64,000 bases of DNA from Rhodospirillaceae bacterium (lineage in GTDB: Bacteria > Pseudomonadota > Alphaproteobacteria > GCA-2746255): positions 230,102-294,101 of the forward strand of contig NVWO01000001.1 in the NCBI GenBank assembly GCA_002746255.1, written 5' to 3'. Below, piece by piece: positions 16,614 to 52,015 of the stretch. A program made the translations under genes and the position numbers. The notes beneath the pieces were generated by a model. It was not told the origin of the DNA and did no database searches. It saw only the letters and a program-made list of their open reading frames with translations. Positions within the stretch are counted from its first letter, which is position 1. Each line of letters opens with the position of its first letter.

Positions 16614-16703
16614 GGAGGGGTGGCCGAGTGGCTGAAGGCGCTGGTTTGCTAAATCAGTATGCGGGTAACCGTATCGAGGGTTCGAATCCCTCTCCCTCCG
16701 CCA
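16614..16703 (+). tRNA. tRNA-Ser (anticodon GCU)
   Basis: Hand-folded cloverleaf. Acceptor stem GGAGGGG/TCCCTCC, anticodon loop TT-GCT-AA, long variable arm, T-arm GAGGG-TTCGAAT-CCCTC, discriminator G and an encoded CCA. Confidence 0.9.
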
Positions 16704-16994
16704 GCCATAAGTCATTGTTATATAAGTATTTTTCAGGATATAGCGTGGGTTTGAACTTGTCCCGCTACTTCCGGGGCTTACGCCCAATGCACCATTCCGT
16801 CATGAACACCTGAGACTGGTCTGGTGTGGCGAATGAGGCACCGATATCGGATAAGTCTCTTACGCCGGTTTTGGTGGTACGGCCAAATTCGCGTTGGGGT
16901 GTGATTTTGGCCGGATTGCTGCCGATTTCATGGCCGGCTAGTGCGCCGTGTTGGTGGCTAGGGGCGGGGATCCTGAGACAATTTCCGGCGTCCG

Positions 16995-18740
16995 TCAGCC
17001 GATTCCGAGGCGTGTGCGTTGCTCTTCCCAGGCGATGGGTAGACGCACCTCGTTTGCCAGTCGCTTGGCGGTCAACTCGATCGGATGACGGTCGTGGAGG
17101 ATAGCCTTCACGACGTCCGGTGCGAGGAAGCTGAGTCGCAGAATGCGGGTGAAATAGGAGCCGGTGATGCCGACTTCGGCGGCAAGCTCCGCTATCGTCT
17201 TGCCACCCTTGCGCATGAGCATCCCATGATACTGGTGGGCTTGGGCGAGTACCCGGCACAGGCTGCGGTCAGGCTTGCGGCGCACGTTACCGTCATCGCC
17301 GTCGATCAGGAGTCTGGTCTCCATGCCGGTGCGCTTGATCCGGGCCGGGACGGTGAAGGTAATGGTCGGCGCGGCGTTTGTTTCCGGTCGCGTCCAGTCC
17401 TGCGGATCGTTCTGGTCCCCTAGAATCGTGATCAACCGACCGGGCATGATATGGATCTCCAGCGTCTCGCGCAGGAGGTCGATCCGGTCGACAAAGACTG
17501 TGAGGATACGGCGTCTCTCGGACGGTTTCATCTTGGGCCACTGTTCGGCAAGATTCGTGACGCGGGCAACGACGGCGGCACGCTCGCTCACGTCGGCAAC
17601 CATCGCCGCGATCGCATCGAAGACCTTCGTCTCGCTTGCCAGGAACTGTCTGAGACGCCCCTCGACGAGTTCTTCGAGGTCGCCGGCCGGTACCCGTCGG
17701 CCACGTGGTGCGCGACGCCGGTTTCCCCGGACGAGTGCTTTCGAGACATAGTAGCGATACCGCGTTCCCTTCTTGTTGGCATGGCTAGGGGTCATGGGTT
17801 CGCCGGCATCGTCGTAGAGCAACCCGGCAAGGAGACTCGGCTGCGCTGCGTCGACTCCGTTTGCACGGTCGATGCGGTTCGCTGCCAGCTTTTGCTGCAC
17901 CTTATTCAACAGCGCTTCGTCGATGATTGCTTTGTGTTCACCGGGGTAGCTCGTCTCCTTGTGGACGATGCGCCCAAGATAGATAGGGTTTTGCAGCATA
18001 TGATAGAGCGCGCCGCGGGCGAGCGGCTTGCCACCGGTTTGGCGACCGAACCGGTTAGACCGGGCCTTGCTTGCGATGCCGTCCCGGTCGAGTTCTTCCT
18101 TGAGGGCGGGGACCGAACCGAGCGCGACATAGCGCCGGTAGATGGTGCGAACGGTCTCGGCTTCGGCTTCGTTGACGACAAGCTTTCTGTCCTTCACGTC
18201 GTAGCCGAGCGGCGGCAGGCCACCCATCCACATGCCCTTCTTCTTGGAAGCAGCAATCTTGTCGCGGATGCGCTCGCCGGTGACCTCGCGTTCGAACTGG
18301 GCGAAGGAGAGCAGCATGTTGAGGGTGAGCCGGCCCATTGAGGTCGTGGTATTGAAGGCTTGCGTCACAGAGACGAAGGAGACGCCGTGTGTGTCGAATA
18401 CCTCGACGATCTTCGCAAAATCGCTTAAGGATCTTGTCAGCCGATCGACCTTGTAGACGACGACCGTATCGACCTTGCCTGTCTCGATATCGGCAAGCAG
18501 GCGTTTCAGGGCCGGTCGCTCCATGGTAGCGCCCGAGATGCCGCCGTCGTCGTACATCTCGGGCAGACAGGTCCAGCCCTCGTGCTTCTGGCTTGCGATA
18601 TAGGCCTCGCAAGATTCGCGCTGGGCGTCGAGGGAGTTGAACTCCTGTTCCAGCCCCTCCTCATGGGACTTGCGCGTGTAGATCGCGCAGCGGGTCGAAA
18701 CCTTGCCGGCGGTCGTCTTGCGGTTCTTGGTCTTATGCAT
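16995..18740 (-). CDS. large serine recombinase (resolvase/invertase N-domain plus recombinase domain)
   Basis: The catalytic N-terminus reads CAIYTRKSHEEGLEQEFNSLDAQRE...VVVYKVDRLTRS, followed by a long C-terminal recombinase region. I preferred the start at MHKTKNRK (18740). Confidence 0.9.
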   Translation of the reverse strand: MHKTKNRKTTAGKVSTRCAIYTRKSHEEGLEQEFNSLDAQRESCEAYIASQKHEGWTCLPEMYDDGGISGATMERPALKRLLADIETGKVDTVVVYKVDRLTRSLSDFAKIVEVFDTHGVSFVSVTQAFNTTTSMGRLTLNMLLSFAQFEREVTGERIRDKIAASKKKGMWMGGLPPLGYDVKDRKLVVNEAEAETVRTIYRRYVALGSVPALKEELDRDGIASKARSNRFGRQTGGKPLARGALYHMLQNPIYLGRIVHKETSYPGEHKAIIDEALLNKVQQKLAANRIDRANGVDAAQPSLLAGLLYDDAGEPMTPSHANKKGTRYRYYVSKALVRGNRRRAPRGRRVPAGDLEELVEGRLRQFLASETKVFDAIAAMVADVSERAAVVARVTNLAEQWPKMKPSERRRILTVFVDRIDLLRETLEIHIMPGRLITILGDQNDPQDWTRPETNAAPTITFTVPARIKRTGMETRLLIDGDDGNVRRKPDRSLCRVLAQAHQYHGMLMRKGGKTIAELAAEVGITGSYFTRILRLSFLAPDVVKAILHDRHPIELTAKRLANEVRLPIAWEEQRTRLGIG

Positions 18741-19254
18741 CGACCGCCTCCTCGGCCCGCGAACCGATCGGTTGCCTGGCCCTATTGTTGATCCCGAAGA
18801 AGCGCGGTCCCGACCAGTGCCCGCCGGTGATTGCGCGCGCGATCGCCGACAGCGACTGCCAGTGTCGGCCCCTCCATTCAAACCCGTCCTCAGTAACGAT
18901 CACGGTATGAGTCTCACCATGCCACTCGCGTATCAGCTTCGCCCCGGGCTTTAGGCGGGCAACCCGGTTGCGCGTGACGTCGCCGTTCCGTTCCAGGGTC
19001 TTCGCCAGATCGGCGAGACGACGCTTCGTTGTCGCGCCGAGGCCACCAAAGGCCCGCTCCTGGATCTTCCATGCAATCCCGAGCAGGAGCAGGTCGCGTG
19101 CCACCCGCTTCGGCGGGTGGATGCGATAGAGCCGTCGCCATTCCACTCGTAGCGCGTCGTAATCCATCTCTCCGAGCGCTTGAAGTCTGGTCGCCACCTC
19201 CTCTACGGCACTCGCACTACGGCGTTGGAGGGCTTCTTTCCCGGTGCGCAACAT
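18733..19254 (-). CDS. DUF2924-like protein (accessory protein commonly next to serine recombinases)
   Basis: Carries the motif GAKLIREWHGETHTVIVTEDGFEWRGRHWQSLSAIARAITGGHWSGPRFFG. It overlaps the recombinase start. I preferred the start at MLRTGKEA. Confidence 0.6.
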   Translation of the reverse strand: MLRTGKEALQRRSASAVEEVATRLQALGEMDYDALRVEWRRLYRIHPPKRVARDLLLLGIAWKIQERAFGGLGATTKRRLADLAKTLERNGDVTRNRVARLKPGAKLIREWHGETHTVIVTEDGFEWRGRHWQSLSAIARAITGGHWSGPRFFGINNRARQPIGSRAEEAVDA

Positions 19255-19258
19255 CGAC

Positions 19259-19549
19259 TCATGCCTCGGCGGGTGCGATTTTGTAAACCTTTCGCTCATC
19301 CTTGTCGGCTTCAAGGCGGATGGTGAAGCCTCGCGTGCGGAGCCGGCTCAGGGCTCCGTATACGGAGTGCTTCTGCCAACCGGTTGCCTTAATGAGAGCG
19401 TCAATCGTTGCGCCCTTCCTGGTGTCAAGCCGGTCCAGGATTAGGCCGAGCTTTCCACCCGGGCGGGGGTTGGCATCGGTCCTCCGAGAGCGCTTGTCGG
19501 GGCTCTTCTTTGCGTAGCTGCGTGTTTTGCTTGGGGTCCGCTTGGTCAT
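19259..19549 (-). CDS. DUF3489-like small protein
   Basis: Only the C-terminal 96 aa of the 224-aa track ORF look genuine (MTKRTPSK...RKGATIDALIKATGWQKHSVYGALSRLR...KVYKI). Confidence 0.6.
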   Translation of the reverse strand: MTKRTPSKTRSYAKKSPDKRSRRTDANPRPGGKLGLILDRLDTRKGATIDALIKATGWQKHSVYGALSRLRTRGFTIRLEADKDERKVYKIAPAEA

Positions 19550-19644
19550 CGGTGGTCCTCCATCTCGGGCCGCGCCACTCGCGCGGCCTCCCACCAGCCC
19601 AAGCCCCGCCGGCAAGGCCGGCCAGGGCGGGCGGAGAGACGATG

Positions 19645-19898
19645 TCCACCCCTCAAGTTGACGGACAGTACCGCTTCCTTCTACGCAGGAGTCCAGACGA
19701 AAGAAGGCGGGAGGTAGGTCTTTCGGAGAACAGGGGGTATAATCGGTGCCAGGCATCGGGACACAGCCGGTCGGCTGGCTACCCATAAAGTCCCATGCTG
19801 GCTTCGGCGGGCCGACCCCGCCGGGGCTTTTTGAAATGGTATGCGAGCGTGCCGTGACGCGGCCGGGCAAGATCGGATGATCTCTGCGCATGCGGGGA
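19645..19898 (+). repeat. structured noncoding element, copy A (TATAAT box, GC hairpin with T-run, one CRISPR-I-E-repeat-like hairpin)
   Basis: It aligns by eye with 28390-28627. Shared parts are aggtaggtctttcggag, TATAAT (19738-19743), terminator-like CGGCGGG-ccgac-CCCGCCG-gggcttttt (19805-19832) and the hairpin cggatgatCTCTGCgcatGCGGGGa (19874-19898). Confidence 0.6.
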
Positions 19899-19922
19899 AA
19901 ACACGAAGGTAAAAGAGCTAAA

Positions 19923-20203
19923 GGCATTGACACGTTAAGTCGTTAGCTGGCTAGGGCAGGGGTCGGTTCGTCGACGCGAACAAAAACAACAGCACTTTCA
20001 AGTCGCCGGGATCGGCCCAACGGTTTCTGTCGATTCACGCTGCCGTCTACAACCTCTTCTACGTCCAACACCACCTTTTATCTCGACGTATATTCAAGGC
20101 ATTTCAAGCCGAGACTTTCACTGTCTGGAATCAAGGTTGGCTTGCAGCCTAATCCGGGTCACGATCCAATCGTGGCAACCGCGGAAGTTAACGTGTCAAT
20201 GCC
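19923..20203. mobile_element. IS6-family-like internally deleted element (MITE-like, both inverted repeats retained)
   Basis: Terminal inverted repeats ggcattgacacgttaa (19923) and ttaacgtgtcaatgcc (ends 20203). The interior keeps only a transposase C-terminal coding remnant (HAAVYNLFYVQHHLLSRRIFKAFQAETFTVW). Confidence 0.65.
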
Positions 20204-20298
20204 GTGGATTTGTGTAGGTAGAAAATTTCCCTAAATTTTCATTTACAGAAATCATCGAGCATATAGTCTAAACATCTTAAGGATGGGCGGAATAAGCA

Positions 20299-20335
20299 CT
20301 CTCGGGGGGGGGGCTCTTTGCATGTCCCCCGAGAG
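20299..20335 (+). promoter_or_regulatory. perfect 10-bp-stem hairpin containing a G10 tract, upstream of the sbcD-like gene
   Basis: CTCTCGGGGG-(16 nt)-CCCCCGAGAG. The run of ten G spans 20304-20313. It lies about 80 nt before the TTG start at 20414. Confidence 0.5.
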
Positions 20336-20413
20336 ACATCGTTGAAATTACGGCACGACTCAAATTGGCTGAAGGTCTGACGACGAGAAATTAACGAACA
20401 GGGAAGCACGATA

Positions 20414-21688
20414 TTGCCTTCGTTTCGCTTTCTTCATACTGCAGACATTCATCTGGATAGCCCTTTGAAAGGGTTGTCTGGGCATGAGGGTAGTCTGACT
20501 GAGCGTATTCGCGGCGCGACCCGTGAGGCTTTTGACCAACTTGTTGGCCGCGCTATTGAGGAACAGGTCGATTTTTTAATCATCGCAGGCGACCTGTACG
20601 ATGGTGATTGGCGAGACTACAAAACAGGCCTGTTTTTCGTCAACCAAATGGGTCGCCTTAACAAAGCGGGAATTCCGGTGTTTCTGCTTTACGGCAATCA
20701 TGATGCAGAGAGTCAGAACACTCGCCGCCTCGTTTTGCCGGAAAATGTGAAAGTTTTCGGCAGCAGAAAACCTGAGACATTTAAGCTTGATGAGTTGAAC
20801 GTCGTCATCCATGGACAGAGCTTCCGACAGCGAGACATCAGCGAGAATCTCGCTCTGACTTATCCAGACCCGGGCGCGGGTGAATTCAATATTGGTGTTC
20901 TGCATACCGGTCTCGGTGGCATGGGCGGACATGAAAATTACGCCCCCTGCGACCTTAGTGATCTCGTGAACAAGGGTTACGATTATTGGGCGTTGGGTCA
21001 CGTGCATCAGGCTCAGGTGCTACATGAGCGACCGCACATTGTCTTCCCTGGCAACCTTCAGGGACGCCACGTTCGCGAGACCGGCAGCAAAGGAGCATGC
21101 CTGGTTTCGGTGGAAGATGGGGAGATCAATGATCTTACTACTCTCCACAGCGATGTGGTGCGATGGTCTGTGGTGCCGGTTGAACTGGAAGACGTCGCCA
21201 GTGTGGGCGAAGCTTTCGATCGGATCCGGGATGCGCTTGAAAATGCTGTGACCAATTTTGGCGAGGGACGCTTGTTGGTATGCCGGGTGCAGCTGCATGG
21301 TCACACAGAATTCCACGAACAGCTTTTGGCCACTGGGGATCATGTTCTCGCCGAGGCGCGCTCCAGTGCCTTGGGGCTGGGCGAAGACATAGCGTGGGTG
21401 GAGAAGGTCGTAATTGAGACGGAACCGTTGATCGATTTGCAAATCAGGGCTGATCGTGAAGACGCTATTGGCGATTTACAGCGTATGCTTCGAGAGGCCG
21501 GTGCTGATGCAAACCTTATAGAGCAACTCGACAGGGATATCGGCGAGATAGTTCGACGGTTGCCTCATGAAGTGCGCGCCGATGTTGAAGATGTTGCGCT
21601 AAGGGCGGCAATTGAGGGCGATCACGCCGGGCTGATCGCAGACGTTACGCCCTACCTATCAGCTCGTCTAACAATGAAGGAGGGCTGA
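20414..21688 (+). CDS. SbcD/Mre11-family metallophosphoesterase (YhaO-like DNA exonuclease subunit)
   Basis: The N-terminus FRFLHTADIHLDSP and the motifs IIAGDLYD, GNHD and GHVH match calcineurin-like nuclease motifs. TTG start preceded by an AGGGAAG Shine-Dalgarno-like sequence. Confidence 0.8.
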   Translation: MPSFRFLHTADIHLDSPLKGLSGHEGSLTERIRGATREAFDQLVGRAIEEQVDFLIIAGDLYDGDWRDYKTGLFFVNQMGRLNKAGIPVFLLYGNHDAESQNTRRLVLPENVKVFGSRKPETFKLDELNVVIHGQSFRQRDISENLALTYPDPGAGEFNIGVLHTGLGGMGGHENYAPCDLSDLVNKGYDYWALGHVHQAQVLHERPHIVFPGNLQGRHVRETGSKGACLVSVEDGEINDLTTLHSDVVRWSVVPVELEDVASVGEAFDRIRDALENAVTNFGEGRLLVCRVQLHGHTEFHEQLLATGDHVLAEARSSALGLGEDIAWVEKVVIETEPLIDLQIRADREDAIGDLQRMLREAGADANLIEQLDRDIGEIVRRLPHEVRADVEDVALRAAIEGDHAGLIADVTPYLSARLTMKEG

Positions 21689-21690
21689 GC

Positions 21691-24600
21691 GTGCGGCTGC
21701 GACGCCTTGATCTTCTTCGTTATGGGCACTTCACGAAAAAAGTTGTTGAGCTGCCTACCGATGAGACCGATTTTCATATTATTTTCGGCCCCAATGAAGC
21801 TGGCAAATCCACGGCACTCGCCGCGATTGAGGACTTGCTGTTCGGTATTCCGATGCACTCGCCCTATAATTTTTTGCATGATTATTCGGACATGCGCATT
21901 GGCGCTGTTCTTGAGAGTGAGAGGTCATCACTCGAGGTCTTCCGACGAAAAGGAACGAAATGTACCCTTCTAGGTCCAGACGACCTGCCATTAGCTGGTG
22001 GTGAGGGGGCGTTAAGATCATTTTTGGTTGACGCGGATCGATCTTTTTTTGAACGCATGTTTAGTCTCGATCACGTGCGTCTCGAAGAAGGTGGCCGTGA
22101 AATTTTGGAGGCGAATGACGAAATTGGCCAGATGCTCTTTTCCGCAGGAGCCGGCGTAGCGGGCCTGCGGGATCGACTCTTGGACTTGTCGAAGGAAGCT
22201 GACGATCTGTGGGGAGCGAGAAGAGCCTCGCGCCGGCTTTTTACCCAGGCAGAAGATAAGCTCAAGGAGGCCGACAAAGAACTGCGGGAGCACACATTCA
22301 CGGCGAACAAATGGCAGGGACTAAAGCGCGCTTACGAAACGGCTGATGAGGCCTACATTGAGGTTGAGGGGAATTTTGAGAAGGTATCCGCCGAAGGGAA
22401 ACGCCTTAGTCGCATTCGTAGGATATATCGCTACGTCCGCATAAAGACCGAACTGGATGGACAGCTCGACGCCCTTGGAGAGGTTGTCTTGCTTCCAGAG
22501 GAAGCCGGTCAGGTTCTCGAAAGCGCGGAGCGCAATGAAACGAAAGCTTCTGCAGCGATCGACACTCTCCTCGGTCAACTGGAGCAGGTAACTCAGGATC
22601 TGAAAGCTCTTACCTTTGACAAAATGCTTGTGCTGCGGGCGGATGATATGCGCGAGCTTCATGAGCGCCGAATCGAAATTCGTCGCGAAAAGGCTGATCT
22701 GCCAAAACGCCAATCCGAACTCGATGTTGCAGATTCCGAATTGCGAGCTTTGGCGAAAGAACTAGGCTGGTTGGAGGATGATGTCGATACGTTGATTTCC
22801 CGCATTCCGGCGCGGGCTAAGGTCGGTGTCGTACGTTCATTGCTTGAGCAACGCGGTGAGTTGGCTGCAAGCGTAACGAAAAGCACTCAAGCGTTGGATG
22901 AGGCTCAAGCCGATTTAATCAAACTCCGCGATCGCCTTGGCGAAATGGGTGAGGTGATCGACGTCTCCAGATTGGCGGCGGTCGTAAAGACGGTGCGTGA
23001 GAGCGGCGACATTGCCGGTCGAGTTGCGCTTGCGGAGCAACAGGCCACTGAGGCACAGGAGCGTGTTGATCGTTTGCTTGCTTCAATGAATCCGGTGCTT
23101 CCTAATGAAAATGACGCGGCAGAGATAAAAGTGCCGCCACGTGCGGGGGTTCAAAAGCACCGCGATAAGGTTCAGGATTGGGATCGGCACTTCCGAGAGG
23201 CGCACCAAAAGACTGAAGCAGTTGAGCGCGAAGCGGACCGCGCAGGAAAGGCTTTCGAGCGCACTGTTCGCAACGAACGCGCCTTTACTAGTAATGAACT
23301 GGAGGATGCGCGACGCCATCGCGACGTGCTCTGGAATTTGGTGAAGCTCAAGCACATCGAAAATGTCCCTATCTCAGATGAGGAACATGCGGCCTACGCC
23401 GATGAGCTTGAAAACTTACCTGCAGCCTTTGAACCTGCGATGCGATTGGTTGATGAAATCACTAACCAGCGATTTGATAATGCCGAGGCGGTCGGACGGT
23501 TGGTGGAAATGTCCCGCATTATTGACGAGCAGAAAGAACTGCTCGACCAGCAACTGAAACAGGAACTGGCGCTCACAAAAGAGGAAGAGCAGCTAAAGTC
23601 CGACTGGCAAGCCATGTGGAAAACCGCGCCGTTCGAACCCTTGGAGTCTGACGCCATGTTGGATTGGTTAGATGCACGCAGCGAACTACTGAAAGCGGTT
23701 GAACAGCGCGCTGACGTGAACGGCGGATTGAAAATCCAACGCAAGGAAGAGCATGAATCGAAAGAGAGGCTTTTGACGGAACTGGCAGCCCTTGATGTCG
23801 ATCGCGTCCCTCTGGAGGACGACATCCTTCGGGTAGTTTTGGAACGAGCAACTAACGTGCAGCGCGAGCAAGAAACTGCGGCCCAGGGCGAGGCTCAGTT
23901 GGAAGAAAGTGTGCAGGATGCGGAAGATGAGGCGGAGCGATGTGAGCGCGATCACGACCGTGCTGAAAAGGCATGGGCAGAGTGGCAGGGACAGTGGTCC
24001 ATGGCCCTGAGGGAACTTGGTTTAGCTGCCGATTTGCTTTCAGACGCGGTCGGCGCACAGATTGAAGTAATAGATCAAATGCGCGACTGGGCGGGTAAGG
24101 TCACTCAACTGCGTCATGATCGCATCGATAAAATAGTTCGGGACGTCGCCGATTTCGAGAGTGTGGTCGCTGAGATTGTCCAGCAAGTGGCTAAGGACTT
24201 ACTAGGTAAACCAGCAGATGAGGCCGTAGTCAAAATTGAAATGCGATTGGCAGAGGCTCAACGTGTTCAGGAGCTTCATAAAAGCAAGTCGGAAGAGGTG
24301 GACGGTCTCGAAAATCAGATTACGGCTATGAAAGAAAGCCGGCATGAGGCAATGGAGTCCTTGATCCCTTTCAAGGAAGCTGCAGGTGTGGATGACGCGA
24401 AGGCGCTCAAGGCGGCAATTGAAAGTTCTGATGCGCTGCGCCAACTGCAAGGCAAGGTGGCTGAAAACCTGCAAACAATGGAGCAAGAAGGAGATGGGCT
24501 GGCGGTTGATGAGTTGGAGAAGGAATGCGATGAAATCGACTTGGACCACGTCGCCGCGCGTGAAGAATCTATTGCCACTGAATTGGATGCATTGCGGCAG

Positions 24601-25212
24601 CAGCTGACCACTGCTGTTGAAGTCAGATCGCTGGCTAGAGAAGCGTTTCAGGCAATTAGGGGCGATGATTCTGCAGCACTAGCCGCCGCAACTCGGCAGG
24701 AAGCCATTGCAGAAATGCGAGAGGTGGCCACTCGTTATGTGCGCGTGCGAACTTCGGCGATATTGCTGCAATGGGCTATTGATCGCTATCGGCGAGAGAA
24801 GCAGGCACCTCTCCTCAAACGTGCTGGAGAACTTTTCGTAACGATAACGAGAGGGTCGTTCAGTGATTTACGTGTCGCCTACGACGATCAGGATCAGGCA
24901 CATTTAACTGGACTGAGGGCCGATGGAGAGGTTGTACGAGTGCCGGGTATGAGCACCGGAACTGCGGATCAGCTATATCTGGCACTTCGTCTGGCGTCGA
25001 TCGGAGATTATCTGGAACGCGCCGATGCATTACCTTTCGTTGCCGATGATCTATTTATCAACTTCGACGACGATCGTTCCGCTGCGGGTTTTGAGGTGCT
25101 CGGCAAACTAGCGCAGAAGACGCAGGTGCTGTTCTTCACCCACCACCAGCATTTAGTGGATATTGCTCGCAGCACCTTGGGAACGTCTGTCCATGTGGTG
25201 ACGTTGGCATAG
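21691..25212 (+). CDS. SbcC/Rad50-like (YhaN-type) ABC ATPase with a very long coiled-coil insert
   Basis: Walker A GPNEAGKST at the N-terminus. Signature-like MSTGTADQLYLALRLA, Walker B PFVADDLFINFDD and FTHH at the C-terminus. About 900 aa of charged helical sequence lie between them, with no CxxC hook. GTG start 3 nt after the sbcD-like stop. Confidence 0.8.
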   Translation: MRLRRLDLLRYGHFTKKVVELPTDETDFHIIFGPNEAGKSTALAAIEDLLFGIPMHSPYNFLHDYSDMRIGAVLESERSSLEVFRRKGTKCTLLGPDDLPLAGGEGALRSFLVDADRSFFERMFSLDHVRLEEGGREILEANDEIGQMLFSAGAGVAGLRDRLLDLSKEADDLWGARRASRRLFTQAEDKLKEADKELREHTFTANKWQGLKRAYETADEAYIEVEGNFEKVSAEGKRLSRIRRIYRYVRIKTELDGQLDALGEVVLLPEEAGQVLESAERNETKASAAIDTLLGQLEQVTQDLKALTFDKMLVLRADDMRELHERRIEIRREKADLPKRQSELDVADSELRALAKELGWLEDDVDTLISRIPARAKVGVVRSLLEQRGELAASVTKSTQALDEAQADLIKLRDRLGEMGEVIDVSRLAAVVKTVRESGDIAGRVALAEQQATEAQERVDRLLASMNPVLPNENDAAEIKVPPRAGVQKHRDKVQDWDRHFREAHQKTEAVEREADRAGKAFERTVRNERAFTSNELEDARRHRDVLWNLVKLKHIENVPISDEEHAAYADELENLPAAFEPAMRLVDEITNQRFDNAEAVGRLVEMSRIIDEQKELLDQQLKQELALTKEEEQLKSDWQAMWKTAPFEPLESDAMLDWLDARSELLKAVEQRADVNGGLKIQRKEEHESKERLLTELAALDVDRVPLEDDILRVVLERATNVQREQETAAQGEAQLEESVQDAEDEAERCERDHDRAEKAWAEWQGQWSMALRELGLAADLLSDAVGAQIEVIDQMRDWAGKVTQLRHDRIDKIVRDVADFESVVAEIVQQVAKDLLGKPADEAVVKIEMRLAEAQRVQELHKSKSEEVDGLENQITAMKESRHEAMESLIPFKEAAGVDDAKALKAAIESSDALRQLQGKVAENLQTMEQEGDGLAVDELEKECDEIDLDHVAAREESIATELDALRQQLTTAVEVRSLAREAFQAIRGDDSAALAAATRQEAIAEMREVATRYVRVRTSAILLQWAIDRYRREKQAPLLKRAGELFVTITRGSFSDLRVAYDDQDQAHLTGLRADGEVVRVPGMSTGTADQLYLALRLASIGDYLERADALPFVADDLFINFDDDRSAAGFEVLGKLAQKTQVLFFTHHQHLVDIARSTLGTSVHVVTLA

Positions 25213-25301
25213 AAGCCTACGACGACTAAAAGCCTCTGTTTTTCATGTCTGAATCAGATGCAAACCGCATCAAATAGTTTGGTCACTTGGAAAATGCGGG
25301 T

Positions 25302-27602
25302 TTAGGTTTCTAGTCCCGAAAGCTGTCCAGGTGCGAACTTCTTAACTACTAAAATGGCTTCCTTCGATGCCAAAAGAATATCTTCTTCTATGTGGGGCGC
25401 ATCGCTAAATTTTCCTCCATGGCAGAGGTCTTGTATGAGGACACTTTTTATTTCGATCTCATGTTCGTCATTGAGAAACTTCACGAATTCCCCAAAATTA
25501 TTTTTATCAGGACAACAGAACTTCCACATACCCTCAATTACGGAGCGAATTGAATTCGCAGTAGTGTGATTTGGTTCCACCGCTTTCTCGCTGACGTCAT
25601 AGACGTCTTTCAGTTGAAGCATGTGGGGAGTTGCAAAGGCTTTTTGGCTTCGCAGAAAATGCTCAGCCGAGCCAGAGACCAACTGATATAGGGCACCCGC
25701 TTTCACTATATTGTTGGTCGAAGCGACGTTATAAAAGTGATTGTTGTGCGTGAGAATTAGCATCTTCGGCTTGTGAGGATTACTCTTTAGGTTGAATTCT
25801 ATCTCTCCATCGTCCCCTATCCGAAGTAGCTTGAGGCACGTGATGATCGTGTACACGTAGTCGAAAGACATTGACGTGACAGGATCGTCAAATACGAAAT
25901 AGATTTTCTTGTAATCGTCGTTAGACTCCACGCGTAGATGGGTCTGCGCGATGAAATAGCAAAACGCCATTGCTGATTTTTCACCATCGCTCAGAGTACG
26001 ATCGCCGCCGCGAAGCATTTCTTTGTTGTTGCGACGGACCTTGAAGTTAGACTTATCGAAGGAGTATTTATCCTGAAAGAAGCGGCGCAGAAGCATCGAA
26101 AAAGTATCGGCTACACGCTCTCTTGCCGAGGCTTTTTCACCGTAGTTATTCGTTAAGGCTGTCAGATTCATCTGGAGTTTGGGTATTTCGGCAGATAATT
26201 TGCGGAGTGCTTCTATTTCCACCGAATTGTCTGTCGCGAATTTTTGTGTGAGCGCTTCGCATGCCGAAGATTGAAGAGATCGCCGTTCTTCGCCGGAATT
26301 GCTTGCTAGGGATGCCAGTTTGGCAAAATGTTTGTTGTTTTCTTCGCAGCGATTTTTGACTGACGTCGCGATCGCAAGATAGTCAGCATTGGGCATATTC
26401 AATGGCCGGTCGAGCTGATCAGTCTTGTCTTGCAGCGTCTTATTAAGGGCGACGAGAAAGGCGCCCAGGCTGTCCAAACTGTCATCAACATCAACCAGTT
26501 GTACGTTACTCATTGTAGAAAAATATGCTTTCAGAGAATCGAAACGAGCGTTGCTCTTGAGAATTGCTTCTCTCTCGTTTGCGATCAACTTCTGTTGCTC
26601 TTGAACATGTTTCAACTGCCCGTCAATACGCTTCCTATGCTGGGCCTCTTCGTCTTCAAAGTACGCCTTATAGGCGTCGATAGCGGTTGCAGCTAAAGCT
26701 CCAATTTCTTGAGTGCAGAACGGACAGTTGTTTTGATCGGCGTTAAGCATCTTTAGCCCTGACTCGAAAAAGGCTTCATCAGATACGATTTTAGTCTTGA
26801 AGGTATCTGCGACAGTGGAGAGGTTGGTTATGTTTGCCAACTCCCCGTTAATCGTTTCGGAGTTGACCGAGAAATCAAAATTTACGGCGACCGGTAAATC
26901 GGGGTCTGATGGCAAAGATTTGAATTTGTTGTATTGGGTGAGAAGGACTTCGACTGACTCAGCACTTCCATCAGCGGTATAGGGCGAGTCCAGAAAATAG
27001 CAGCCCGCATTGAGAGCCTTATAAGTTCCCAAAGAACCCGTAATATTGAAATCCTGTTTTAGTTTCAGTTGCGCTGCTTTGAATGAGGTGAAAATTTCCT
27101 CCTTGCCTCTCGAAAGAGTAGATTGCTTGTCCTCTATCTTTTTCTGGAGGACATCAAGATCGGCATTTTCCTTTCCGATGATGATTTCATGAGTAATTTT
27201 GCCATCAAGCTCCTCCAACTTGTTGCGCAATTCTTCGTCAATGTAATCTTCTGAGAAAACGTGAAAAATATACGCGGGTGTTGAGCGCGTGACAGTGCTT
27301 GTACTCTTGAATAGTTCCATGCCTCCAATCTTAGTTGTGTCTTCAAACAGATTGAAAATTCCGGTTCCCGAAACGGACTCTTCTGAAACCAGAAGATTTG
27401 GCACCTCACTGTCTTTAACCTTGGTGTTTGCCGCACCATCAAGGTGCCTCAGGGCCCTTGCAAGGAAGGATTTCCCAAACCCATTGCGCGCGAAGATGAG
27501 GTTTTGTTTTTCAGACGAAAGAAACTGATCAAGCTTCATGATCGGCCCAATATGCTGGGCTACAATCCTCAAACGGGGCTTTGATTGCGGAGGGGTGTTC
27601 AT
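25302..27602 (-). CDS. RloC-like ABC ATPase with zinc-hook coiled coil (AAA_13 / PrrC-RloC family), candidate anticodon nuclease
   Basis: Walker A ARNGFGKS, coiled-coil insert with CPFC, signature LSDGEKS and Walker B IYFVFDDPVTSMS. The C-terminal region carries R-x3-E (SIRSVIEG) followed by His residues. The gene is visibly AT-rich. Confidence 0.65.
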   Translation of the reverse strand: MNTPPQSKPRLRIVAQHIGPIMKLDQFLSSEKQNLIFARNGFGKSFLARALRHLDGAANTKVKDSEVPNLLVSEESVSGTGIFNLFEDTTKIGGMELFKSTSTVTRSTPAYIFHVFSEDYIDEELRNKLEELDGKITHEIIIGKENADLDVLQKKIEDKQSTLSRGKEEIFTSFKAAQLKLKQDFNITGSLGTYKALNAGCYFLDSPYTADGSAESVEVLLTQYNKFKSLPSDPDLPVAVNFDFSVNSETINGELANITNLSTVADTFKTKIVSDEAFFESGLKMLNADQNNCPFCTQEIGALAATAIDAYKAYFEDEEAQHRKRIDGQLKHVQEQQKLIANEREAILKSNARFDSLKAYFSTMSNVQLVDVDDSLDSLGAFLVALNKTLQDKTDQLDRPLNMPNADYLAIATSVKNRCEENNKHFAKLASLASNSGEERRSLQSSACEALTQKFATDNSVEIEALRKLSAEIPKLQMNLTALTNNYGEKASARERVADTFSMLLRRFFQDKYSFDKSNFKVRRNNKEMLRGGDRTLSDGEKSAMAFCYFIAQTHLRVESNDDYKKIYFVFDDPVTSMSFDYVYTIITCLKLLRIGDDGEIEFNLKSNPHKPKMLILTHNNHFYNVASTNNIVKAGALYQLVSGSAEHFLRSQKAFATPHMLQLKDVYDVSEKAVEPNHTTANSIRSVIEGMWKFCCPDKNNFGEFVKFLNDEHEIEIKSVLIQDLCHGGKFSDAPHIEEDILLASKEAILVVKKFAPGQLSGLET

Positions 27603-27918
27603 AACGGTGCGCTCTGTCTCCCGGAATTCTAGAATTTATCAGATCACGATGCAGGGAGAGCCCAGCATTGAGACCTTGAATTTCAATTCACTAAAGTCCG
27701 AACCGTCAATCACTGTAAAGTTGGCTATGACTGGTTTTGATCCTCTTGAGACGTTTGCCGAGCGCCAATCGATGATCGCATTGGGCTGATACCTATATAA
27801 CTAAGAGAGCGTATACTATTATTAATAAAAACCAATGACGAGTTACGTTGAAATACTCAGTTTTCAGTCTACGGCTGAATAAATAACGTAGCATTCCAAA
27901 TCATCATCCAGGTGTCGG

Positions 27919-27934
27919 GGCATTGACACGTTAA
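27919..27934 (+). mobile_element. solo IS6-family-like terminal inverted repeat
   Basis: ggcattgacacgttaa is identical to the repeat at 19923 and in the same orientation. No transposase follows it. Confidence 0.6.
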
Positions 27935-28025
27935 GTAATTGGCAATCGCACGGGCGATTCCTAGTGTGGGAACATTCGCACCGGTTTGAGCCACACAAAA
28001 GCTATAGTGCTAGTGGTTTCCAGAA

Positions 28026-28298
28026 TTGACGGCGAAGGAATGCGCGATGGAAAAGACAGATCAAGAAAGAGTTGTAGAAATGGGCGGGCCGACGCTTCTT
28101 GAAGCGCATCAGGTGGCTGTCACCTATGACGAAGAAAATGGCTACCAGATTCTTCTGCCTAGCACCGACGAACACGATGAAATGCCGGAGGGAGCGGCAA
28201 TTCTTGTTGCAACCGCCATGCGTTTGACTAGTGACGAGGCTCTTTATCAAGAGATGGTGGCGTGGCTAGACGCGCGCCAGGATGATTTGCGGAATTGA
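28026..28298 (+). CDS. small acidic hypothetical protein
   Basis: 90-aa ORF rich in Asp/Glu (possible start MEKTDQ at 28047). I do not recognise a family. Coding status is uncertain. Confidence 0.35.
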   Translation: MTAKECAMEKTDQERVVEMGGPTLLEAHQVAVTYDEENGYQILLPSTDEHDEMPEGAAILVATAMRLTSDEALYQEMVAWLDARQDDLRN

Positions 28299-28348: not shown

Positions 28349-28627
28349 CGGTTGATCTCTGCGCATGTGGGGAACGGATTGTTTAACGTTGCACCCTCCA
28401 AGACAGATAATGGCTGCTTGTGAACTGTGTTTTTGGAAGGTAGGTCTTTCGGAGTACAAGAGGTATAATCGGCGCCAGGCATCGGGACACAGTCGGTCGG
28501 CGGCCTTCCATAAAGTCCCGGTGTTGGCTTCGACGGGCCGACCCCGCCGGGGCTTTTTTGCGACAATATATGAGCGTGCCGTGATACTTGCCAGGCAAGA
28601 TCGGTTGATCCCTGCGCATGCGGGGTC
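28349..28627 (+). repeat. structured noncoding element, copy B, flanked by two CRISPR-I-E-repeat-like hairpins
   Basis: Hairpin repeats lie at 28349-28375 (cggttgatCTCTGCgcatGTGGGGaac) and 28602-28627 (cggttgatCCCTGCgcatGCGGGGtc). The interior is homologous to copy A, including TATAAT (28464-28469) and a terminator-like hairpin with T-run (28531-28559). Confidence 0.6.
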
Positions 28628-29762
28628 TCAATAAGGCCAATTTACGTTCTTAAACCGTTGCAAAAGTTTCGTCGCGTAGTCAGGCTCAATCATCTTTGCG
28701 AAATCAATCAGTCCGCGCAGGTGGGCTTTCATACCCCATATCGTATCAAACTCCCGAGCCTTCGCATGTTCAGTCGGACCGAATTTTTCCAGATAGTGAA
28801 TATGAAGGCGGAGATTGTCTTTGAACTCCCTTCGCAGACTTGGCTTAGGGCCACCCACATTCAGGCCAAGTACGATTTTTCTGCTCCCCGGAGGGATCAG
28901 TTTTGTCTTTCTATGCTGGGTCCGAAAGCCCGCCGATGACAAAATTTCCTCAATGGTATGAATAAAGGACGATGCAGTGGACCGACCGAAATTCTTCTCC
29001 GGTGTCGAGAAGGTCAGGTCATCGCTATAGCGCGTATACGTCAGTCCTGCTTCTCTGGCAGCATCGGAAATCCGCGTATCAATTGGCGTCATGATGAGAT
29101 TTGAGAGCATGGGGCTCGTAGGAGCCCCTTGAGGCAAATAACCCAGTACACCCGTCGAATAGGCAGGAATTTTCTCATTTCTGCGCCTGACCTTCCAAAC
29201 CGGATCACTATGGCGCGGGCTTCGATCCACTGGACCGATCGTTACTATCCGAGCAAGTTCGAATGACACCAGCGGTTGGTAACCCAGTGCTCTGAAAACA
29301 CGAAACACCTGGATCTCCGATATTGATTCGAAGAAGCTGGTGACATCCATTTTAATGAGTCATTGCGCCCCGCAATGCCTGCTCGCACATGAAAAAATGG
29401 ATCCGCCGGGTGCAAACGCAAAGCTGCAACTGTGAACGGGAACATATCTGGAGGATATACTTATTAAGCCATTTCTGAACGTGGCTCAAAGAAGGCGATG
29501 GCACATGAATGAAACGCCTTCCGCCTGACCGTTTTCGGATCGAAAATTTCCGGTATGTATCGATCTTGGAACGCTGAACGACGCTGCGCAGAAATTGGTA
29601 GGGCACCTTTGCGCGGGTAGCCAAGTGGTTGAGCGAGAGAATGGCTGGTAACTTCGGTTCACCCGACTCGACGGCTTCGATCTGCTCAATAGCGGTTGCA
29701 ATCGTGTCGTCGCCTAAGCCCTTCTTCTTCGCCTCTGCCCTATATTGATGAGGGGACCACAC
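28628..29762 (-). pseudogene. retron-type reverse transcriptase, disrupted by one frameshift and one in-frame TGA
   Basis: RT motifs are split over three frames. The first piece reads RKFSIRKRSGGRRFIHVPSP...HVQKWLNKYILQ. A frameshift near 29445 leads to YVPVHSCSFAFAPGGSIFSCASRHCGAQ, which ends at TGA 29360-29362. The last piece reads LIKMDVTSFFESI...LPQGAPTSPMLSNL...YTRYSDDLTFS...VLGLNV. From memory it aligns colinearly with the Ec86 RT. Confidence 0.75.
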
Positions 29763-29942
29763 GTAGACTACTCCGGTGGTGCCGGCACGGCGACTGCGCG
29801 CGCTGGCGACCCGAGGCCCACGATGGAAGGAGGCAGCGTGCGCAATCTCCAGTCATGCGTAGGCTTTCCCAAAGGGCAATGGAACTCCACGCCCCAACAG
29901 CCGTCAATATGGCGACTGCGGCAACATTGTTGCCTGCTTACA

Positions 29943-30212
29943 CTAGCCACGTGCGGCCCTCCTCAACTGTTGGGGAAAGTAATATTCGTCGCCCCTTGCA
30001 AGGACGCCCCCGTAAACTTTCCCCTGATCTTTCGCGGCTGCAAGCTCGGTACGTCCGAGAACTGTCAAACGAATCGATTGTGTTAAAAACCCCCACTTAA
30101 TGCATCGATTGATGATCTCAGTACAGCTTTCGCGGTTCAGCCCTGTTGCAAAGCTCAGGGCGCTTTGTTTTCTCTGTCCCTTGGCAATGAGGGCGAGAAT
30201 AAGAAGGATCAC
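29943..30212 (-). CDS. small winged-helix-like DNA-binding protein
   Basis: 89-aa ORF with an HTH-like pattern (LSFATGLNRESCTEIINRCIKWGFL). It sits between the PRTase-like gene and the RT. Confidence 0.5.
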   Translation of the reverse strand: MILLILALIAKGQRKQSALSFATGLNRESCTEIINRCIKWGFLTQSIRLTVLGRTELAAAKDQGKVYGGVLARGDEYYFPQQLRRAARG

Positions 30213-30235
30213 CTAACCTGTCTCGCCGCGTTGGC

Positions 30236-31182
30236 TCAGCTTGCTGCTCTTTGCCAGCTTCTTCTGTCCGACATCAAGAAGCGTAACAAGTGAGTCACCA
30301 CGTGCGATCTCAGGGGGAAAACTGATTGCTCACCCGCCAATATCGCGCGATTTTGAAACAACGGTTCCCACCGCTTTTTTCCTTTGATGGGTGCCCATAG
30401 GATCGCTGGTGCATTGTTTGGACAACCATGCTCAAACACCAAGGCAACCGATTCATGTCCATAGCCATCCCAGAAGTGGCTCCTGCTGGTACGCCGTCCA
30501 TACCGCTTGCAAACATTAAGCACGGAATTCCTCAGCGCCTGTCCCCAGGGCATATTCCTGAAGGTCGGGCAACTGCGCTCGACGATGACCTCGGGCTTCG
30601 CCTTGTGTTTGCTTACGTGTTTCATTCCCCGCTCGGTGGCGGAGAAAGAAACAACGATGATCTTTAAGTACTTGAGCGAAAGCCAAGAAACAAATGTCGG
30701 GTCGTTCCAGAAAGATTCAATAAATTCATATGTTCGTTTTCCAGAACCAATAAAATCATCGACGAAAACAATGGCTCGACACTTCTTATTCCGCAGCTCC
30801 TGCAGGCTGGGGTGATTTAGCAGTTTATTTGAATCTGTTTTGGAGTAGTTCCGGATTATAGCTGCTATCCGCGCCTCGCTTCCGTGATCGCTGCCATGAA
30901 CGAGCGCGTCGATATTTCCGGTCGTAGTGTTCGTATACTGTTCAAAATACGAGTTCTGTTTATCGACCTCGCGAACAGCATAAAAGGCAATTGGCAGATC
31001 GTTCTCGGAAGCCGTCTTCTCCAATGACGACTGTATGGCACGTTCGAATTCCGAATGGGAAACAAGCGTAAGGCTTGCATCAATCTTCTCAGCTATGTCT
31101 TTATCGCTTGAACCAAACTGGACCAGCCAGCTCTTGCCAAGCTCTGTGTATAGCAGCGCTCGGGCTATTCGTTTTTCCGAAC

Positions 31183-31195
<13 letters not shown>
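30236..31195 (-). CDS. phosphoribosyltransferase-like (PRTase-fold) protein
   Basis: Has a PRPP-loop-like motif, [15 protein letters not shown]. Its start overlaps the hsdR stop, either at GTG 31195 or as a GTGA overlap at 31186. Confidence 0.55.
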
Positions 31196-34331: not shown

Positions 34332-35093
34332 CTATGCTGCCAATTTCTCGCGGATTTCTTCGCGGCGGCTCCAGAGAACGGGCATAATCTGATAATTCTT
34401 CAGCGCATCGGTAACGGTACTCGATATTGCACGCTCGTTATCATTCAGGAACGCATAAGAAACGGAGTTCTCAGGCCTGACTTCACGTGTATCGAGGCAG
34501 GCCATAATCAGGTTCTGTGCCGTGTTCCTGTTGGGATTGTTGATCGCACGGATTATCCGTTCCGGCTCAATCCGGGATTTAGGGATCACAAAATCGAACA
34601 TGTGATCGAATCCGGTTTTCCCGGTGAATTTCACGCTCGGTGTAAACCGGATTTCAGAAAGATCGAGCCAGGCCGCCACGTCCTCGAAGAAAAGCGCCTC
34701 TACCGTAGGCGACGCCAGGTAAAACATGTCGTGGACGGATAGAATGCCCTGAATCAGATTATGCTTACGAAGCGCAAAGTTGTCCGCACTTGTATGAACG
34801 CACAGTTGGTGATCGCTCTCCTCAATGCCGAACCCATTGAGCACCGACTTGAGGATTGCCTGCCGCTTCGGGCTTTCGAGGGAAAAGCCCGAATGAGAAA
34901 GGTCTAAGAGTGTTTCGCCTCCATCTGTAAGGAGATAGCCGCCTTCGTGCTTTCGCGCGTAGATTTGAATGTAATCGTTATGGCGGTCCAGATATGGGGT
35001 CGTAATCTCGGCCCAGTTGTTAATGTGACGGATAGCCGTCTTGTCCCGAAGCCAGCGCCAATACCCTTCGACCAGTTTCTCTATCTCGTTCAT
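34332..35093 (-). CDS. DUF1828/DUF1829-like protein nested in the hsd operon
   Basis: 253-aa ORF. The family assignment is from memory of proteins often found in type I R-M loci. It overlaps the upstream ORF as ATGA and ends 8 nt before the hsdR start. Confidence 0.5.
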
Positions 35094-35536
35094 GTGAAGA
35101 GCCCTGGTTCAAAGTGAGGTGGCCGGGTGACATTGCAGTAGCGCAGGAAATCCTGAAGCGATTGGAAAGGATCAGCGATGGAAGGGAATTGATCCGTCGG
35201 GATCGGATATGCCCAACGGTCGTTGTAACCTTCCTGGTAAAGATGGATGTGCGGACAACCAATCTCCTCATCGTCCGGGTTGCGATGAGGAGCGCCACCA
35301 AAATCAAGCCGAGCGAGAATGATTGTTGTTCGGGCACGATTCTGAAACGTCCCTTTGTTCAAGTTGATCCGGCTGCGAGTTATATCAAGGTGGAAACTCT
35401 CAGATTCATCATGCGAGACGAGCGGAACGACTATCCCACCGCCAAGGTCAGGAAGTCGCCGACGTTCCTCATCAACTCGATGCTTTTCGAGCGCCAAAAG
35501 AGCATCCGCGTCAGCCTGTGTCAGCCACATACTCAT
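35090..35536 (-). CDS. hypothetical protein (148 aa) nested in the hsd operon
   Basis: Non-biased sequence with the core [41 protein letters not shown] cannot name a family with confidence. Confidence 0.55.
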
Positions 35537-35555
35537 GTCACCGCCTCCGCAACTT

Positions 35556-36125
35556 TCACGACATTGCGGAGGCGGAGTTTGCCCGCGCTTGGTCGATTTT
35601 GTCCTTTTTCTTCCTTAAATATTGGCTAGGGTTCCAGCCACCGGGGTTTTGGGCAGGGATATTGTATACGTTTCGAAGTCTTTGCGCCAAATCCGAGGCC
35701 GCTAAGCCAAGGCGGGCATATTGATGCTGGCGTTCTTCAAAGACTTCTTCATAGTCAGGTGGAAAAGCTACCTCAGAGCAAACAAATGCAATCGAACGGT
35801 TTGCAGCTTCAGCTTCGCCTGGGAGCGTCAAGAGCACGTACATCAGTTCGCAATCAATGCTTTTCCAGTCAACATCGTCAGGATATATCAGAGGCGCTGG
35901 TAGCGAAATTTGAGGATGAAGGCAGCCTTCCTGATCTTGCTGGCCGCCATCATCTTGGACAACCTCGACACATTCATTGACATACCTATCGAGAATGCAA
36001 GCAATACGCACGGAGAGGTACCTGGCGTGCCGCGCCCGCATCCTCATGTCTGACCACGCGTCTTTTATCAAAGTGAGTAAGGCTCCGATAAAAACCCCTA
36101 AAAGACCAAAAACAGCTTCGCTCAT
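35556..36125 (-). CDS. hypothetical protein with one N-terminal TM helix (189 aa) nested in the hsd operon
   Basis: The N-terminus AVFGLLGVFIGALLTLI is hydrophobic. The start overlaps the hsdS stop as ATGA. Confidence 0.5.
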   Translation of the reverse strand: MSEAVFGLLGVFIGALLTLIKDAWSDMRMRARHARYLSVRIACILDRYVNECVEVVQDDGGQQDQEGCLHPQISLPAPLIYPDDVDWKSIDCELMYVLLTLPGEAEAANRSIAFVCSEVAFPPDYEEVFEERQHQYARLGLAASDLAQRLRNVYNIPAQNPGGWNPSQYLRKKKDKIDQARANSASAMS

Positions 36126-42069: not shown

Positions 42070-42429
42070 AAATTCCCTGTTCTATCGCGTAGGGAATTCG
42101 GCTGAATAAGCTGCAATATCAGCAAGTTGTGGGGGATTTAAGGGGCGCACCCGGGCGAATTTTTTAAAAAATTCCCTGTTTTAGACAGATACAGGGAAAT
42201 CGGCGGAGACGGGTTCGCACAAGACTGCGCACTCCGCCAGCAAGTCTTGTTCTCCGCGTGATTTTCAGAGGATGCCCAGGCCGTCGGCGCAAATGGCGGC
42301 GTTCCGCGGGCCTTTGCGCCGAGGCGCGTTTTAAACCGGACCGGGAGAACAGAGTCACTTCGTGAGATCCACTTTGGTGCGGAACTTTTCTCCACCGCGC
42401 CATTCCGCAGTCCGGTTTGGCGAGCCGGG
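42070..42429. repeat. hairpin-rich repeated element U1
   Basis: It aligns by eye with 51565-51908. The head has AATTCCCTGT/ACAGGGAA palindromes. The body has nested stems (ACAAGACT...AGTCTTGT and CGGCGCAAA...TTTGCGCCG). Confidence 0.6.
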
Positions 42430-42483
42430 TAGTGATGATGTGCATCCGTTATCCGCTGTGGCTGCGGTAGGTAAGAGGGTGCG

Positions 42484-42693
42484 ATGTCGAAGTTCAGGAA
42501 CATAAAAACCCTGCAAAAGTTCGCCGCCGCCCATATCTTGATCCACGATCATTTCAATCACAACCGCCACCTCAACCATCGAGACATTTTCAAGCAGAAC
42601 CGCTCGGCTGCCCTCGCCGAATGGCGTCAATTGGCGGCCTGAAAGCGAGGTTGCCGGGTATTTATGAGGCTTATTTTATTAGACTGACAGCAT
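42484..42693 (+). mobile_element. IS6-family-like right-end fragment (transposase C-terminal remnant plus terminal repeat)
   Basis: Encodes MSKFRNIKTLQKFAAAHILIHDHFNHNRHLNHRDIFKQNRSAALAEWRQLAA, then about 50 nt and the terminal sequence agactgacagcatc. Confidence 0.6.
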
Positions 42694-42747
42694 CGTCCTC
42701 TCTGTTGGTGTGTTGACTCGCAATCTGCTAGTCGTATTGTCTCGTCT

Positions 42748-43422: not shown

Positions 43423-43613
43423 GGCTGGCATTTAAGAGTGACGATGGCCTGCCTCCGTATGATCCGATGCGCCAGCAGTAACTAAGCCGCCAATTTTGGC
43501 TTGGTGAGCACCATGCGGTAGCAATCGAGACTGCGTGACAGGAATTCGTAGGCCGCACCCCAAAGATACAGACGAAATTTGTGATATTCAAACTCGCCGA
43601 ACTCGCGGATGAC

Positions 43614-43686
43614 GGCGTCATTTGGCGGCCTGAAAGCGAGGTTTTCTGCCATTTTGGAGACTGGCTCCATTAGACTGACAGCACCT
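43614..43686 (+). mobile_element. IS6-family-like right-end fragment (about 70 bp)
   Basis: gcgtcatttggcggcctgaaagcgagg...attagactgacagcacc matches the end of the 42484-42693 fragment in the same orientation. Confidence 0.55.
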
Positions 43687-43698
43687 CCCACCGGTCAT

Positions 43699-50534: not shown

Positions 50535-50550
50535 GGCATTGACACGTTAA
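50535..50550 (+). mobile_element. solo IS6-family-like terminal inverted repeat
   Basis: Third directly oriented copy of ggcattgacacgttaa. The next 30 nt or so resemble the sequence following the 19923 copy. Confidence 0.6.
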
Positions 50551-51515: not shown

Positions 51516-51564
51516 TTCCTTGATCGGGCGAATAATTCCCTGTTCCGTGGATTAAATTCCCTGT

Positions 51565-51908: not shown

Positions 51909-52015
51909 TGGGTGGGGGGGATGTGATCGTTTATGACAATAACTGGCTGGGGCCAACGCTGATTAGATAGCAAGGTTTTTGAATGGATATGAAAACGCAC
52001 AGGAACGGGTCGCGT

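Follow-up and report, generated by a model that had tools for sequence, protein, structure and literature searches.

[quoted passage not shown] The SRUFinder rule for recognizing such units asks for 90% identity or more across 90% or more of a known repeat, and mobile elements have been proposed to integrate into arrays by way of solitary repeats (PMC10651486). Mini-CRISPRs of the CreA/CreR kind hold an insert of spacer length, are located within cas loci and show a match to the promoter of a cas or toxin gene beside a PAM (bioRxiv 10.1101/2023.03.10.532045). Retron-Eco11 carries its ncRNA between effector and RT (PMC12746101).

Here we analyze a 64,000-nt stretch of DNA from a Rhodospirillaceae bacterium (the window), in which an earlier note had described two hairpins resembling the type I-E repeat at the ends of a noncoding element of about 250 bp. 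Coordinates and sequences of the pair were as that note gave them: the hairpins at 28349-28372/5 and 28602-28625/7 are direct repeats, 253 nt apart from start to start and identical at 22 of 24 positions. Searching the window with the 24-mer at up to 3 mismatches revealed a third copy on the same strand, at 19874-19897 (+), which had been missed; these 3 occurrences compare with 0 expected from 100 shuffles of the window. The copies are called A (19874), C (28349) and B (28602) and all lie on the same strand. They are listed here in crRNA sense, with their identity to the repeat of contig L107, which is introduced below.

19874..19902, minus strand: copy A, an orphan type I-E CRISPR repeat, 25/29 against the L107 repeat, reading CGGATGATCTCTGCGCATGCGGGGAAAAC on the plus strand
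28349..28377, minus strand: copy C, an orphan type I-E CRISPR repeat, 26/29 against the L107 repeat, reading CGGTTGATCTCTGCGCATGTGGGGAACGG on the plus strand
28378..28434, unstranded: AT-rich linker of 57 nt from copy C to module B; the A and B alignments diverge left of 28435 / 19709
28602..28625, minus strand: copy B, an orphan type I-E CRISPR repeat, 24 nt identical to the L107 repeat

The retron junction cuts copy B off at base 24. In place of the last 5 nt of its 29-nt unit stands sequence containing the RT stop codon (28628-28630), so this hairpin does abut the stop codon as had been noted. Copy C has no module to its left, and the 57-nt linker that follows it has no counterpart beside copy A. 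About 19 nt past copy A lies an IS6-like inverted-repeat end, at 19922.

The pattern GGWTNATCYCYGCGCATGYGGGG matched at least 120 metagenomic contigs, nearly all of which are arrays with a 61-nt period (29-nt repeat plus 32-nt spacer). The metagenomic contig L107 contains 73 repeats of CGGTTGATCCCTGCGCATGCGGGGAACGC at this period, together with an AT-rich leader and a cas operon that is complete by Pfam (cas3-cse1-cse2-cas7-cas5-cas6e-cas1-cas2). Copy B follows the L107 29-mer for 24/24 positions and then breaks off, and comparison of the same 29-mer with the window found no further degenerate repeats above chance. Judged by their match to the repeats of an array beside a type I-E cas operon, the hairpins are genuine type I-E CRISPR-repeat sequences, and the likeness is far stronger than could have been known from the window by itself. 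Searches of 321-371 nt against the Rfam CRISPR-DR families gave no match at E ≤ 10; this has little weight, because the Rfam seeds are narrow and the L107 repeat is matched directly. No Rfam RNA family matched on 6 kb or on two short stretches.

The earlier note had also observed that the stem is fully paired only on the plus strand, by way of G-U pairs, and had taken this as a sign of a plus-strand RNA. The pairing is as described, and the conclusion drawn from it does not hold. Leader and cas orientation in L107 place the crRNA sense of the window copies on the minus strand, where AUCAACCG forms the handle of the repeats. The stem of the L107 repeat is CCCTGC/GCGGGG, already with the “wobble” T, and copy B has the same stem; since this presumably working array of 73 repeats carries it, the C.A mismatch is native in the crRNA sense. 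Copies A and C carry extra changes, and these are C-to-T transitions when set against the L107 repeat. G-U pairing on the plus strand is what such transitions on one strand are expected to give, so it is no sign of the functional strand.

No array surrounds these repeats. Their start-to-start intervals of 253 and 8475 nt compare with spacers of ~32 nt and a 61-nt period in type I-E arrays. The window contains no cas genes, in agreement with the earlier note: Pfam assigned none among the larger ORFs and tblastn gave none that was convincing, the eight type I-E Cas proteins of L107 finding nothing better than E = 0.02. Neither a cas gene nor a repeat occurs in the 10 kb beyond the right end of the window. 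No part of the window resembles the L107 leader and, among the matches listed, the ~165-nt module described below shows no similarity to the flanks of 120 arrays, as leader or as trailer. Of the three interpretations offered earlier, a decayed mini-array comes closest; array spacing, a leader and cas remnants are absent from the window. The suggestion of a CreA/CreR-like regulator fails, as the repeats B and C lie 226 nt apart instead of ~32, no cas operon is present and no partial target for the pseudo-spacer was found in the window. Searches of the window with the first 12 nt and with the conserved 13 nt of the pseudo-spacer returned the copies themselves and matches at chance level.

What lies between copies C and B is itself duplicated. 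The segment 19709-19897 matches 28435-28625 over 124 nt at 85% without gaps, or 157/196 with gaps, which makes most of the “250-bp element” (226 nt between the hairpins) the second copy of a module of ~165 nt. The modules are ~80-85% identical, the duplication together with the repeat spans ~190 bp, and the junction between module and repeat falls at the same base in both copies. This duplication had escaped the earlier note.

19709..19873, unstranded: module A, ~165 nt, immediately past the conserved stretch upstream of the DUF3489-DUF2924-serine recombinase operon
28435..28601, unstranded: module B, duplicate of 19709-19873, its first ~27 nt aligning with the right arm in relatives of the recombinase element

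Module B consists, in order, of the ~27-nt arm-like start, a TATAAT (28464-28469), a GC-rich stretch of 50 nt, the motif CCATAAAGTC, a GC hairpin with a T-run (~28531-28559) and 42 nt leading into the repeat. TATAAT and hairpin are thus present where they had been reported. The TATAAT finds no support as a promoter: it has no -35, for which reason the promoter scanner does not call it. Blocks of perfect identity between the modules (19 nt, GCCAGGCATCGGGACACAG; the 24-nt terminator; 13 nt, GAGCGTGCCGTGA; the repeat) alternate with variable blocks. No homologue of the module turned up in PLSDB, phage records, GTDB representatives or IMG/VR. In GTDB representatives the GCCAGGCATCGGGACACAG 19-mer gave unrelated sequence only, its seven matches all lying in a single conserved, coding-like stretch; in IMG/VR its first 16 bases also gave only unrelated sequence, and the hairpin was not found there. 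The translated frame of the module, taken from both copies, matched nothing among called proteins.

The start of the module leads to a recombinase element that lies at a tRNA gene.

16614-16703, plus strand: tRNA-Ser(GCU), by ARAGORN
16614..19549 (tRNA included), unstranded: tRNA-Ser and, after it on the minus strand, the large serine recombinase, DUF2924 and DUF3489 genes, the integration module of the island, by Pfam and NCBIfam

The island of this integration module carries module A and repeat A, and contig L143 has the same layout at a tRNA-Ser(GCU). Four relatives (L141, L143, L148 and L149) share ~155 nt upstream of DUF3489 with the window, and a further, weaker stretch reaches the first ~27 nt of the module (GGTAGGTCTTTCGGAGAAC), so that homology to the recombinase element extends to about 19704-19733. 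In these relatives the DUF3489-DUF2924-serine recombinase trio behaves like a compact element of ~3.3 kb in a tRNA-Ser(GCU) or tmRNA-like gene, with a displaced 3' gene fragment at its DUF3489 end, and many homologues of the trio sit on contigs under 1 kb, as multi-copy elements do.

Past the arm the relatives have the displaced 3' half of a tRNA or tmRNA, which is what insertion into genes of this sort should leave. The window has at this place TATAATCGG, a GC-rich run of ~50 nt, CCATAAAGTC, the hairpin that resembles a terminator, 42 nt and the CRISPR repeat. The arm is present in both modules; no tRNA-like fragment was recognized in the ~50-nt stretch of either, and no displaced tRNA-Ser fragment was found elsewhere in the window. 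The CCATAAAGTC motif also follows the tRNA-Ser at 16704, at the left junction. Module B starts with the same arm fragment and hence likewise comes from the end of an element of this kind. A possible precedent for an array next to such a target is L107, where, within 12-191, a tRNA-Ser(GGA) lies 88 nt from the trailer-end repeat of the 73-repeat array; in the modules, CCATAAAGTC and repeat are ~91 nt apart. This is an analogy only, as the isoacceptors differ (GGA against GCU) and the intervening 88-91 nt are not homologous, and we discarded synteny through tRNA-Ser as a case of homology on the same grounds.

Comparison with a second strain shows that the island takes copy A along with it. A contig of that strain, L014, is 2-5% diverged from the window as far as 16594 (compared from 13200) and 100% identical over 16614-23261 (at least 6.6 kb), a tract that takes in the tRNA-Ser, module A, repeat A, an IS fragment and SbcCD-like genes. 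Module A accordingly shows no variation in this close strain. Such identity amid otherwise diverged strains points to a recently shared mobile island whose boundary coincides with the tRNA gene. Module and repeat, in their A copy at least, are cargo of the island and not old chromosomal sequence at the site.

The island is a mosaic. One 8-kb block of low GC content (45-54% vs about 60%) stands between IS6-like ends at 19922 and 27918. The IS6-like terminal repeats GGCATTGACACGTTAAGT occur at 19922-20210, 27916-27943 and 50532-50579, with an inverted copy near 20195-20210; they correspond to the dispersed-repeat families D12 and D14. Among the IS6-like sequences is a C-terminal transposase fragment, FKSPGSAQRFLSIHAAVYNLFYVQHHL, which we take to belong to the IS6 family. 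Candidate defense genes lie at 20414-27602: a metallophosphoesterase (424 aa) and an AAA_27 ATPase (1173 aa) that form an SbcCD-like pair, and a 766-aa AAA_13 protein that matches PADLOC PDC-S06 at E = 5e-136 and has a PrrC-like C-terminus. To the right of copy B follow a retron and a type I restriction system; between hsdS and hsdR, at 34332-36125 (-), are DUF1828/DUF1829 and DUF6978 genes and an unassigned gene of 189 aa. Families of dispersed repeats, 76-90% identical and probably further IS fragments, occur at 42200-42700, 43600-43690, 51400-51910, 58200-59030 and 60540-60770, which makes the right half of the window a mosaic too. A 15-nt tandem repeat (GTTTTTTTCTTCGCG / GCTTTCTTTTTTGCG) was seen at 2692-2811, either within a long minus-strand ORF or at its end.

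On the other side of repeat C, 50 nt upstream of it, an ORF at 28047-28298 (+) encodes an acidic protein of 83 aa. It has ~30 homologous clusters among 1.8 billion representatives, and its structure was modeled at pLDDT 85 with two strands and two helices. It matched no family in Pfam, PHROGs, NCBIfam or PADLOC and no PDB sequence, and the model found no similar fold in PDB or BFVD. The one homologue that could be retrieved (L154) lies beside a probable tRNA 3' end, recognized by eye, and has no CRISPR repeat downstream. We rejected the ORF as an anti-CRISPR protein on the strength of this homologue and the lack of an Acr-like family or fold.

The retron that adjoins copy B is broken in both protein genes.

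28628..31195, minus strand: decayed type III-A retron (PADLOC RT_III-A and PRTase_III-A)
28628-29762, minus strand: retron RT, with a frameshift near 29450 and an in-frame stop near 29352
~29752-29958, minus strand: msr-msd ncRNA, with a fold conserved in three relatives
29943-31195, minus strand: PRTase-wHTH, with a frameshift near 30300-30320 and an in-frame stop near 30213

The breaks were read from the frames and from tblastn against the intact proteins of L019. Intact relatives encode an RT of 377 aa and a fused PRTase-wHTH of 414 aa; the same split genes recur in other assemblies of this strain, possibly from the same sample. Placed between the wHTH and RT genes, the msr-msd shows high conservation across three relatives and folds with a long terminal pairing, and the ncRNA is almost unchanged from theirs although neither protein gene is intact. 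The stop of hsdR and the start of the PRTase overlap (31183-31195), and the same junction is found in L019 (2576-2579), whose RT is 75% identical; restriction system and retron thus seem to move together as a unit.

With the neighborhood described, four other readings of the repeats can be weighed. Their position against the RT stop codon had suggested a functional link with the RT, the element belonging to the retron and serving it either as template ncRNA or in 3' control of the RT. The likelihood of this is close to nil. The conserved RNA of the retron sits at ~29752-29958, upstream of the RT, in the window as in the three relatives; after the RT stop the relatives (RTs 70-77% identical) have unrelated sequence, with neither hairpin nor module; and the second module copy stands 8.7 kb away with no RT. 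The relatives' sequence after the stop and the conserved msr-msd upstream already refute the link. Another reading, which we regard as doubtful, is that the solitary repeats act on a host CRISPR-Cas system, either as a minus-strand RNA in crRNA sense that binds Cas6e/Cascade (a Racr) or as a crRNA-like decoy or regulator. The copies suit such a role in being intergenic, on a recently transferred island, outside any array and more than 100 bp from one another (the nearest repeat is 226 nt away), and solitary repeats on mobile elements have documented precedent (PMC10651486). In copy B, stem and handle are exactly those of a working type I-E repeat, and this copy is predicted to be co-transcribed with the hsdR/retron operon. 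The same copy lacks the first 5 nt of the unit, and in crRNA sense the 6-bp stem contains 2 C.A mismatches in copy A and 3 in copy C. A scan for the sigma-70 consensus found no promoter-like site upstream of any copy on the minus strand. Against one reference repeat, copy C reaches 89.7% over its full length, copy A 86% and copy B 100% over 83% of the unit, which puts the identities, 86-90%, under or right at the limit set by the SRUFinder rule of 90% identity and 90% coverage. No convincing match to the island was found among 2656 spacers from arrays of this repeat family, and the neighboring acidic ORF, as described above, gives no help to an anti-CRISPR reading. Its full form, in which the tRNA-Ser island carries repeat mimics as counter-defense, at least one copy (B above all) titrates Cas6e/Cascade and the module supplies signals for expression or stability, is distinctly unlikely.

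The plus-strand sRNA of about 85 nt proposed by the earlier note would make the module an RNA gene in its own right (~28476-28559 and 19749-19832), with its own -10 and intrinsic terminator and no relation to CRISPR, the repeat merely lying 42 nt downstream. Both modules do have the TATAAT and an identical 24-nt terminator core, folding of the plus strand gives a long terminator helix with a U-run after it, and a long-range stem, GCCAGGCAU.GGGAC with GUCCC..UG..GGC, can be read by eye in both copies despite changes on the 3' side. Such a transcript is conceivable on these grounds; the remaining evidence makes it unlikely. Apart from the missing -35, the scanner calls neither promoter nor terminator, and the TATAAT falls in the region where the tRNA fragments of the relatives have their crossover, at the anticodon loop. 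Fold z-scores reach only -1.3 (B) and -2.7 (A) in a comparison of n=2 copies, no clear gain over shuffled sequence, the minimum-energy folds differ, the inner hairpin is not kept in module B, and neither Rfam nor any collection searched supplied a family member or homologue. A last reading takes the ~190-bp direct repeats A and B as attachment-like sites, by which an 8.5-kb element with the SbcCD-like pair and the AAA_13 gene entered through the CRISPR-repeat segment, on the model of phages that integrate into CRISPR arrays. In favor of it, the repeats have the same orientation and bracket the low-GC block (45-54% vs about 60%) of defense-type genes, and an entry of this type has been suggested for solitary repeats (PMC10651486). 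The IS6-like ends at 19922 and 27918 suffice to explain how the block arrived, neither an empty site nor a circular junction was recovered, the direct repeat has its left edge within the arm of another element, and copy C stands inside the bracket. We consider attachment sites improbable.

The reading that we prefer, at a probability of roughly 0.55, is that the three copies are stranded and partly decayed type I-E repeats in a mosaic mobile island, with no working array or RNA gene. A plausible order of events can be proposed. The ~190-bp segment of copies A and B would run from the terminal arm of a small serine-recombinase element that inserts into tRNA-Ser, through the terminator-like hairpin, into the repeat. 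The recombinase element may once have stood beside the trailer end of a type I-E array, as it would when its target tRNA-Ser abuts the array. It could then have been mobilized or duplicated together with the flank of the array, and the linked segment duplicated or imported twice. Later insertions of IS6 type, of the 8-kb defense block and of the retron/restriction block would have cut the rest away. The decay all around suggests such relics: the retron genes are broken, IS6-like fragments flank the 8-kb block and copy B is cut. Other observations sit less well with stranded repeats. The alternation of perfectly identical with variable blocks in the modules could be a mark of selection, copy B retains unchanged the stem and the 8-nt handle region of a working repeat, and the ~50 nt at the position of the relatives' tRNA fragment are not recognizably tRNA-like. 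Copy C and the 57-nt linker left of module B are not explained by this history.

Read as relics, the repeats provide a tidy example of CRISPR fragments scattered in mobile, defense-rich islands, and they warn against two errors, that of taking G-U-only pairing as a sign of strand and that of taking adjacency to the RT as a functional link. If the copies were active instead, chromosomal islands would use repeat mimicry against type I-E systems, RNA anti-CRISPRs would extend from phages and plasmids to a chromosomal island that carries defense genes, and a small serine-recombinase element would be linked to the ends of CRISPR arrays.

Set against described systems, the locus resembles several in part. 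The ncRNA of its retron is placed as in Retron-Eco11 (PMC12746101). As in CreA/CreR, two degenerate repeats enclose sequence that is not a spacer (bioRxiv 10.1101/2023.03.10.532045). Like Racrs, the copies mimic a repeat in isolation, lie between the genes of a mobile element and stand apart from cas genes; unlike them, they have no promoter in crRNA sense, weakened stems, identity at or below the cut-off and no acr neighbor (PMC10651486). The module starts with a conserved right arm where relatives carry the displaced 3' half of a tRNA, as the scars of tRNA-integrating elements do; unlike such scars, it contains no recognizable tRNA fragment, continues into a terminator and a CRISPR repeat, and is present twice. 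With type I-E repeats of the subfamily CGGTT[C/G]ATCCC[C/T]GCGCATGCGGGGAAC, a 29-nt unit, the window copies share 24-26 of 29 positions, the 6-bp GC stem, the GCAT loop and the handle-forming end ATCAACCG. They differ from type I-E arrays in having neither 32-nt spacing nor leader nor cas genes, and in that two copies have further mismatches in the stem and one stops short at base 24. Arrays that are left orphaned or degenerate once cas genes are lost are likewise of one orientation, decayed, without cas genes and interrupted by mobile DNA. Unlike in those arrays, no interval of spacer length survives here, two of the three repeats are each joined to a copy of the same ~165-nt non-CRISPR module, and at least copy A travels in a mobile island instead of being fixed in the chromosome. 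Orphan repeats in a mobile, defense-rich island are an ordinary kind of thing, found here in an unusual arrangement.
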